A DNA stretch of 64,000 nt from Eledone cirrhosa (taxonomy: Eukaryota). Both the position numbers and the translations under genes were made by a program. The stretch is taken from the NCBI GenBank assembly GCA_964016885.1, contig OZ024753.1, forward strand, positions 38,440,001-38,504,000, given 5' to 3'. Under the pieces are notes generated by a model. That model saw nothing but the letters and a program-made list of their open reading frames with translations. It did not search any database and was not told where the DNA came from. How positions within the stretch are numbered: position 1 is the first letter of the stretch; the number at the start of each line of letters is the position of its first letter. Of the stretch, positions 281 to 1,354 are shown piece by piece.

Positions 281-510
281 TGTCTTAATTAATATCTATT
301 TCTTTGCCAAAATGAAACCGCGGTATTAGCACGAATTTATAGGTGAAATTATATTTTTATTTTAAAATGTAATTTTTGCTTACTTATAACTTTTAATATA
401 CTATAAATTTTTACACCTAAATATAATTTTTGAAAAATGAAACTCTACAAATTATAGTTTTGAGCTATTTAAGTTGTAATATGAGTGAAATTGTTTTATT
501 TTAGTCTATT

Positions 511-568
<58 letters not shown>

Positions 569-573
<5 letters not shown>

Positions 574-1298
574 TATGAAGAGAGAAGAAACATTTAGATA
601 TAATTAGTAATAAAATGTATCATACCTAAACTGTTCCTAAATTCCTCGACTACGTAGTTTCGTGGCATAAACAAAAACAATATATCAAAGATATAGAGTC
701 CTTGCGAGGTCTGCCGACTTATCAAGAGGATACCTCATTTTACTAGTCTCAAGAACGCGTCTACACGACGTGAGAAAGAATCCCAAAAGGCGGAGGGGGA
801 GATAGTCACGCGATATAACGGTCGAGAAACAGAGCTAAGCCTCTTATAACCACGAAGAAAATACCACGGAGGCGGAGGGGGTATTCATATCGAGGCCGCA
901 GAAGAGGTAGTGAAGAAGGCGAGAAGTATGAGTAATGGAAGCTTTCCAGTTGTCCCCACACTTCAAAGATTGCTCGACCAGAGGGAGTTATTAATATATT
1001 TATAAACACACAGATACATGCGGACACACACATATATACATGAATGCATCCGCACCCAACTGTGAGTTAAGGGTGCCAACTTCACCGATGTTGCTCAATG
1101 AATGACTGGGACAGACCAATTCAGTTTGAACTAGACTGAACCAGTATCAGAGTTAAAAATACATTATGAAGAGAGAAGAAACATTTAGATATAATTAGTA
1201 ATAAAATGTATCATACCTAAACTGTTCCTAAATTCCTACAGTTGGGTGCGGATGCATTCATGTATATATGTGTGTGACCGCATGTATCTGTGTGTTTC

Positions 1299-1307
<9 letters not shown>
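569..1307 (-). mobile_element. Non-autonomous HHR-bearing retroelement (retrozyme/Penelope-like), 591-nt unit plus partial repeat and 5' inversion, inserted in (TA)n
   Basis: Direct repeat 569-646 = 1160-1237; inverted repeat 994-1063 vs 1238-1307; HHR at 643-730; (TA)n on both sides. Confidence 0.75.
643..730 (-). ncRNA. Type I hammerhead ribozyme, U3:A8 core variant
   Basis: Minus strand: tcctc TTGATAA gtcggca...tgccac GAAA ctacgtag TC gagga. Stem I tcctc/gagga, stem II gt(c)ggca/tgccac, palindromic stem III actacgtagt, GUC cleavage triplet. Confidence 0.75.

Positions 1308-1354
<47 letters not shown>

Follow-up and report, generated by a model that had tools for sequence, protein, structure and literature searches.

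The window, the whole stretch of 64,000 nt that was analysed, harbours at positions 568-1307 one copy of an element with a repeat unit of 591 nt. Unit coordinates U1-U591 are used throughout, with U1 at window position 1237 and U591 at window position 647, on the minus strand. The following features were identified in the copy and its flanks.

506..567, no strand: (TA)n target, left flank, read from the sequence
568..646, minus strand: start of a second unit (U1-79), which ends at the fixed short 3' end and is joined to (TA)n; at least 2,031 exact short ends, and 138 of 300 arm ends at U79
643..730, minus strand: type I hammerhead motif, from motif and fold; cut predicted between 648 and 647, junction intact in the DNA
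647..1237, minus strand: one full 591-nt unit (U1-U591)
994..1158, minus strand: 165-nt 'tail' (U80-244) between the two fixed 3' ends, from the census of arm ends
about 1001 to 1068, minus strand: long predicted hairpin inside the tail; its 5' base is the main hot spot of 5' breaks
1176..1229, minus strand: predicted hairpin just after the cut (about U9-61); 5' breaks are elevated around its 5' base
1237/1238, no strand: 5'-to-5' junction of the two arms, read from the sequence
1238..1307, plus strand: second, inverted arm (U175-244), which ends at the fixed long 3' end and is joined to (TA)n; at least 1,128 exact long ends
1308..1350, no strand: (TA)n target, right flank, read from the sequence

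The original prediction had placed a minus-strand unit of 591 nt at 1237, with a repeat of its first 78 nt at one end and an inverted 70-bp segment at the other. This layout is present: the sequence has a period of 591, U1-78/79 recur exactly at 646-569/568, and 1238-1307 is the reverse complement of 994-1063 with 2/70 mismatches. The repeat and the inversion are not products of chance. The cleavage-site residues C17 and G1.1 correspond to 648 and 647, and 1237 is equivalent to 646; the boundary at 1237 therefore lies one base 3' of the predicted cut, in agreement with the distance of at most 1 nt originally given. The inverted arm starts at U175, within the hot spot of 5' breaks at U165-186. 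A second copy of the unit was not found within the 64,000 nt, and microsatellites swamp a repeat scan of the whole window. Dispersed-repeat-like stretches lie at 1-260 and 1590-1735, which we take to resemble an octopus SINE and a LINE fragment; elsewhere in the window microsatellites predominate.

The 591-nt unit is a member of a young, high-copy family. A DNA search of the 3.0-Gb genome, which its repeats suggest to be that of a cephalopod, returned 856 candidates for the unit, and the 40 scored gave 123 matches of 98-100% identity, many of them in tandem. Exact matches to U1-26 number 2,938 genome-wide; this pattern catches 217 of 374 sampled units, and it misses units because a variant there is common. 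The 3' ends joined to (TA)n amount to at least 3,159, with at least 2,031 at U79 and at least 1,128 at U244. From 251 loci fetched, 184 unique complete insertions were retained after duplicates and those cut by a locus edge or by Ns had been dropped; 145 of the 184 were picked by their 3' ends on contig C1, with 5' ends ignored. The longest insertion in the sample has 3,902 nt. Flanks are TA-rich on both sides in 150 of the 184 insertions and on at least one side in all of them, in a sample partly collected through TA-joined patterns. The (TA)n target hides target-site duplications.

Insertion L235 (G000:C1:111726100-111730900) represents an older subfamily, 86-89% identical, with short and long ends unchanged; the two end sites are therefore conserved across subfamilies. 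Two out of four sequencing runs include one closed contig of 620-621 nt each, at a depth of about 8, which may stem from RNA or from DNA. A 358-nt sequencing contig shows 14 differences over 103 nt to window 765-867 and a further 225 unrelated letters, and is possibly a related element with part of the unit in common.

Its sequence marks the 591-nt unit as a non-LTR retrozyme, in other words a Penelope-like element of the non-autonomous kind, and it almost certainly belongs to a known element class. Similar to non-LTR retrozymes, it is non-coding, lacks LTRs and has a GC content below 50% (41% GC; longest ATG-started sense frame 75 codons), carries a type I hammerhead in each tandem unit (motif, fold and junction bases), and occurs as dispersed monomers to multimers at high copy number. 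Similar to Penelope-like elements, it is arranged as a partial, 5'-truncated tandem together with an inverted copy that is likewise 5'-truncated; the tail is confined to one end, and the target is AT-rich or a microsatellite. A reading frame with reverse transcriptase (RT) and GIY-YIG, which would mark an autonomous Penelope-like element, was not found in the 591-nt unit.

Fixed 3' ends and head-to-head arms

Arms of the family end at two fixed sites, the short end 79 nt and the long end 244 nt after the cut. Among the 184 insertions, 74 consist of a single arm and 105 of two arms that meet at their 5' ends; the remaining 5 are complex. The pairing is asymmetric: in 98 out of the 105 head-to-head insertions, one arm has a short end (U73-87) and its partner a long one (U240-250), none combines like with like, and 7 have one odd end. 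Single arms use the short end in 45 cases and the long end in 29. The inverted 70 bp of the window copy, first attributed to a template switch, is thus a second arm ending at the fixed long 3' end, and one of 12 long-end arms of 58-82 nt.

The two arms overlap by 0-5 nt at the junction in 73 of the 105 two-arm insertions, and their lengths are weakly anticorrelated (rho -0.28, p=0.013). In 9 of 75 insertions the two 5' ends fall within 15 nt of each other, a weak effect (p=0.03), and their closeness was not significant at 5, 30 or 50 nt.

For rotifer Penelope elements, self-priming has been proposed (PMC3846280), and inverted arms could in the same way arise where the first cDNA, or an antisense template, folds back and primes itself. 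The head-to-head geometry and some near-palindromic junctions suit such an origin, and in 69 of the 98 pairs, the window copy included, one arm could lie inside the other. In 29 of the 98, however, neither arm fits within the other, and these pairs therefore cannot be fold-back copies. Moreover, each of the two arms stops at a fixed site next to (TA)n, and single arms use either end, which also speaks against fold-back; we regard it as extremely improbable.

5' ends, the predicted cut and the hammerhead

In the original prediction, RT ran off the self-cleaved 5' end and then switched template to give the inverted piece, so that the boundary at 1237 would record ribozyme activity in vivo. The check proposed with it, a comparison of 5' breakpoints with the cut, was run on the family. 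The 5' ends are scattered. Of the 221 arms in the 3'-anchored sample, 2 have their end in U590-U2, i.e. within 1 nt of the cut, against 1.5 expected, and about 1% of arms end at the cut. The densest 21-nt window of 5' ends is U165-186 (24 versus 7.9 expected), at the 5' base of the long predicted hairpin. Boundaries thus lie mostly off the cut, largely the pattern that had been named as contrary to the prediction.

A genome-wide search for breaks was based on units with a wrong preceding base, with true breaks separated from point variants. True breaks made up 11 of 15 matches at G1.1 (the cut) and 11 of 16 at U1 (one base after the cut), the window copy among the latter, compared with 5 of 19 at the upstream control U577 and 5 of 12 at the upstream control U585. 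These 22 arms, from 20 insertions, stand against 4.6 expected per position (Poisson p=0.0002), and the cut positions exceed the upstream controls about twofold (22 versus 10, p=0.025). At the downstream control U15, the base of another predicted hairpin 15 nt downstream of the cut, 13 true breaks were found among the first 30 of 78 matches classified (2 of the 13 possibly one local duplicate), or about 21 after normalising for the larger share of the family caught by its pattern. The twofold excess is therefore not specific to the cut. Among 26 (TA)n-joined 5' ends in U574-U13 (C1-C13; read by eye in the first 100 of 143 entries), 3 coincide with the cut; a TA microhomology five bases upstream of it accounts for 5.

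Run-off from a cleaved end is favoured by the excess over the upstream controls and by two insertions (L067/L079 and L087/L088) in which both arms start within 1 nt of the cut and span exactly cut-to-79 and cut-to-244. Cleaved linear RNA would give such arms, and these two insertions favour a minor cleaved-RNA route. A possible microhomology of 2-3 nt at the junction of the window copy also suits run-off followed by a template switch. The window copy itself, nevertheless, runs through an intact cut junction before ending, which excludes a cleaved monomer as its template; an origin by cleavage would require a partly cleaved multimer, and run-off needs a partly cleaved linear dimer here. Further points against run-off are the breaks at U15, the TA-joined ends upstream of the cut, the main hot spot at U165-186, the fixed long end of the inverted piece, and the two bases preceding U1, which are kept in 2,907 of the 2,938 units. 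As a whole, run-off with a template switch is very improbable. That cleavage caused the start of the window copy is unlikely; its closeness to the cut is close to chance level among thousands of arms, and the headline claim is mostly coincidence. The case advises caution with the boundary as genomic evidence of ribozyme activity in vivo: where one copy alone is seen to start at such a cut, this argues only weakly for cleavage.

The hammerhead motif comprises stem I at 730-726/647-643, the core UUGAUAA at 725-719 and GAAA at 661-658. Its core has U3-A8 instead of C3-G8, stem II is long, and stem III is palindromic. The U3-A8 variant is known from Schistosoma Penelope-like elements (PMC4209133). 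The active fold lies 1.1 kcal/mol above the local minimum (-21.5 vs -22.6). Two stem III regions are computed to pair with each other at -14.3 kcal/mol, and dimeric cleavage would therefore fit. The Rfam search gave no match at gathering score for the hammerhead, and none of the 16 matches at E<=10 belongs to a hammerhead family. Microrna-like Rfam matches over the hairpins were weak and are taken as chance.

Variants common to at least three insertions occur at none of the 36 hammerhead core and stem positions, compared with 68 of the 555 positions elsewhere (p=0.011; 263 of 300 arms, with loci picked for cut-site variants left out; p=0.15 when these loci are included). With a threshold of two insertions, variants are found at 2 of 36 and 127 of 555 positions, respectively (p=0.007). 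Private substitution rates are equal, 0.19% in the hammerhead and 0.21% elsewhere; templates with a damaged hammerhead therefore seem not to propagate, since inherited variants are absent though new ones arise at the same rate. Low variation is also found outside the hammerhead, with no recurrent site in U51-100 and one in U401-450. The lack of inherited hammerhead variants would be better evidence of activity in vivo than the boundary, yet it is indirect.

Template, enzyme and comparison with known systems

Each insertion carries one haplotype. When 38 common substitution sites are compared, the units of one arm disagree in 19 of 4,827 comparisons and the two arms of one insertion in 18 of 1,294 (66 pairs; 11 of the 18 from L168), whereas 18.8% differ between insertions. 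This comparison leaves out the indel-prone stretches U108-121 and U197-215; with these included, the mismatch is 1.2% within an arm, 3.4% between arms and 16.9% between insertions. Substitutions private to one insertion are present in all copies in 42 cases (17 of them from the divergent insertion L235), in one copy in 169 and in some copies in 4, and 26 of 135 testable ones occur in both arms. The arms of the window copy differ at 2 of 70 positions. L168 (G000:C1:112860500-112865400) is the sole one of 66 two-arm insertions with clearly different arm haplotypes and reflects either two RNA templates for one insertion or two adjoining insertions; since its arms differ in haplotype, two templates can occur.

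A monomer circle copied by rolling would be the simplest source of this uniformity. A homogeneous linear multimer would likewise give one haplotype per insertion: a linear transcript of an array, primed at two sites in different units, could give rise to the insertions with no circle, given source arrays that are homogeneous, or tandem duplication and conversion later on. It accounts for the overlap of arms with no need of strand displacement and leaves room for some 5' ends at a cleaved site; the weak anticorrelation of arm lengths and the 7 of 22 cut-site arms that first pass an intact junction also agree with it. It is, nonetheless, at odds with the many haplotypes between insertions and almost none within, and with the only 4 private substitutions in some copies versus 42 in all. 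The 169 single-copy substitutions indicate that homogenisation after insertion is weak, and fixing variants across a whole array needs some single-unit step. We consider the linear multimer decidedly unlikely.

The explanation that we favour, and hold to be reasonably likely as a whole, is a head-to-head insertion in which a Penelope-like RT primes both (TA)n ends on one, probably circular, RNA. Priming of both arms on RNA is very likely, and a circular template is likely given the haplotypes. From the original prediction, reverse transcription of a hammerhead-bearing RNA is kept as regards the element type and a single-monomer, probably circular template that fits the haplotypes; run-off and template switch are not supported. 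Tandem transcripts would self-cleave, probably as dimers through the palindromic stem III, and the cleaved RNA would be ligated into 591-nt circles. A Neptune-like protein acting in trans would cut both strands of (TA)n, and one cDNA would start at each fixed site, U79 serving one DNA end and U244 its counterpart. The cDNAs would travel round the circle over random distances, frequently stalled close to a hairpin's 5' base, and the two would be joined end to end, or one arm alone would be joined to the target. In the window copy, the cDNAs would have reached 670 and 70 nt, the longer one ending a single base away from the cut. Points against this explanation include the differing arms of L168, the share of L235 in the private substitutions, the low variation outside the hammerhead, the 2 differences in 70 between the arms of the window copy, and the lack of significant alignment with L343 described below. 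A closed circle, moreover, would not lead one to expect the real surplus of 5' ends at the cut, about twofold over the upstream controls, and ribozyme-dead RNA of the Poseidon element PAc inserted normally in vitro (PMC11167929).

Candidate sources of the enzyme were sought among 10,595 candidate GIY-YIG matches, of which 150 were scored. Locus L343 (G000:C1:145868500-145878000) possesses a 938-codon stop-to-stop frame with RT (28 bits, just below the Pfam cut-off) and GIY-YIG (above the cut-off), a C-x4-C-x2-C linker, as given for Neptune and Nematis (PMC8557442), and U3-A8 hammerheads 4,979 nt apart. Its family has 1,890 candidates, of which the 40 scored were 97-100% identical. In this family the distance from the cut to the 3' end is 82 or 150 nt; the last 12-13 bases of the long end are nearly identical to those of the 591-nt unit. 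Among its head-to-head insertions, 10 pair 82 with 150, none pairs like with like, 2 have an odd end and 3 are truncated at the locus edge (37 loci, inspected by eye, with a query that favoured long ends).

L343 and its relatives L344, L348, L351, L352, L354 and L363-L392 form a Neptune-like Penelope family that is young and autonomous. Its U3-A8 hammerhead is predicted to cut after GUA, its tail has 68 nt, and its 3' untranslated region contains a microsatellite with (TA)n. A local alignment of the unit with L343 was not significant (p 0.49-0.98 against shuffles; hammerhead p=0.05). Homology of the terminal repeats was not found, and only short motifs and their spacing are common to both; the unit therefore works like the ends of the L343 family, while descent from it is unsupported. 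At least four Neptune-like families, L343 and three others, are present in the genome. L343 is therefore only a candidate partner, and that its family serves the 591-nt element is a tentative assignment, somewhat more doubtful than not.

BLAST of the unit against 50 GIY-YIG loci gave one ordinary insertion (L338) and otherwise microsatellite-like matches. At L353, a minimal C3-G8 hammerhead motif occurs twice (8662 and 9173), 511 nt apart, downstream of a more distant Penelope-like frame; it is also carried by L337, and the pair may be a partial tandem or another retrozyme family. A hammerhead-like motif with a palindromic stem III (TGCGCA) at L348:827 and L356:3956 belongs to a different family again.

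Similar to metazoan non-LTR retrozymes (PMC7229834; bioRxiv 10.64898/2026.07.22.740005), the family consists of non-coding tandems with one type I hammerhead per unit and GC below 50%, found as thousands of dispersed monomers to multimers that co-occur with Penelope-like elements. The unit exceeds the 170-400 nt given by Cervera and de la Pena (2020, PMC7229834) and lies inside the 51-972 bp range of Li et al. (2026, bioRxiv 10.64898/2026.07.22.740005). It differs from retrozymes in its U3-A8 core and long stem II. Fixed 3' ends, inverted two-arm insertions and (TA)n targeting were not found in the available text of these two papers.

Endonuclease-bearing elements of the Neptune/Nematis type (Craig et al. 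2021, PMC8557442; Arkhipova et al. 2013, PMC3846280) likewise form partial tandems and are truncated at the 5' end; an inverted copy with 5' truncation, a tail confined to one end, microsatellite targets and a hammerhead in the terminal repeat are further common features. In contrast to them, the unit has no reading frame, its tail has 165 nt instead of 30-40, the whole unit repeats many times, and the one-end tail is strict (98 mixed pairs, none of like ends). Poseidon PAc of Anolis (Frangieh et al. 2024, PMC11167929) resembles the unit in its two internal RT start sites that bound the tail, in its AT-rich targets and in the extension of both DNA strands, seen in vitro. From the published positions, a PAc start site lies about 85-92 nt after the hammerhead cut, compared with 79 in the unit. 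However, PAc start sites are not homologous to the cut DNA, whereas the ends of the unit are AU-rich and run into (TA)n, and PAc is autonomous and was assayed on linear RNA.

A description of the 591-nt family was not found in the literature searched, which lay outside repeat databases and most subscription papers. Asymmetric end pairing with one template per insertion was not found as a rule in the available text of PMC7229834, PMC8557442, PMC3846280, PMC11167929, PMC4209133 and bioRxiv 10.64898/2026.07.22.740005. This family-wide rule is the value of the present case, and it bears on the mode of transposition. Circle templates have been proposed as a hypothesis (PMC4209133; PMC7229834), and mechanistic work on Penelope-like elements has been called for (PMC8557442). 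The questions touched are the origin of tandem and inverted Penelope insertions and the role of retrozyme circles as templates for reverse transcription. A young family with thousands of near-identical insertions makes both testable by counting, and its short RNA suits in vitro assays.

Penelope-type transposition in general may be an obligatory asymmetric twin priming on a single ribozyme-made RNA circle, a proposal to which we give slightly less than even chances. One protein dimer would use two fixed sites to prime the two ends that a double-strand cut leaves, and its enzymes would both roll round one and the same circle. If true, this would explain the one-sided tail, the head-to-head arms and the tandems of more than one unit at once, and the family would be a genome-wide record of it. 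No paper for the term 'twin priming' was among the matches listed in the literature search. In LINE-1 twin priming, two target ends are primed on one RNA, which results in a 5' inversion joined at short microhomology; the landing position of the second primer varies, and there is no overlap between the arms. In the 591-nt family, by contrast, both positions are fixed; its arms overlap, and each of them can be longer than one unit.
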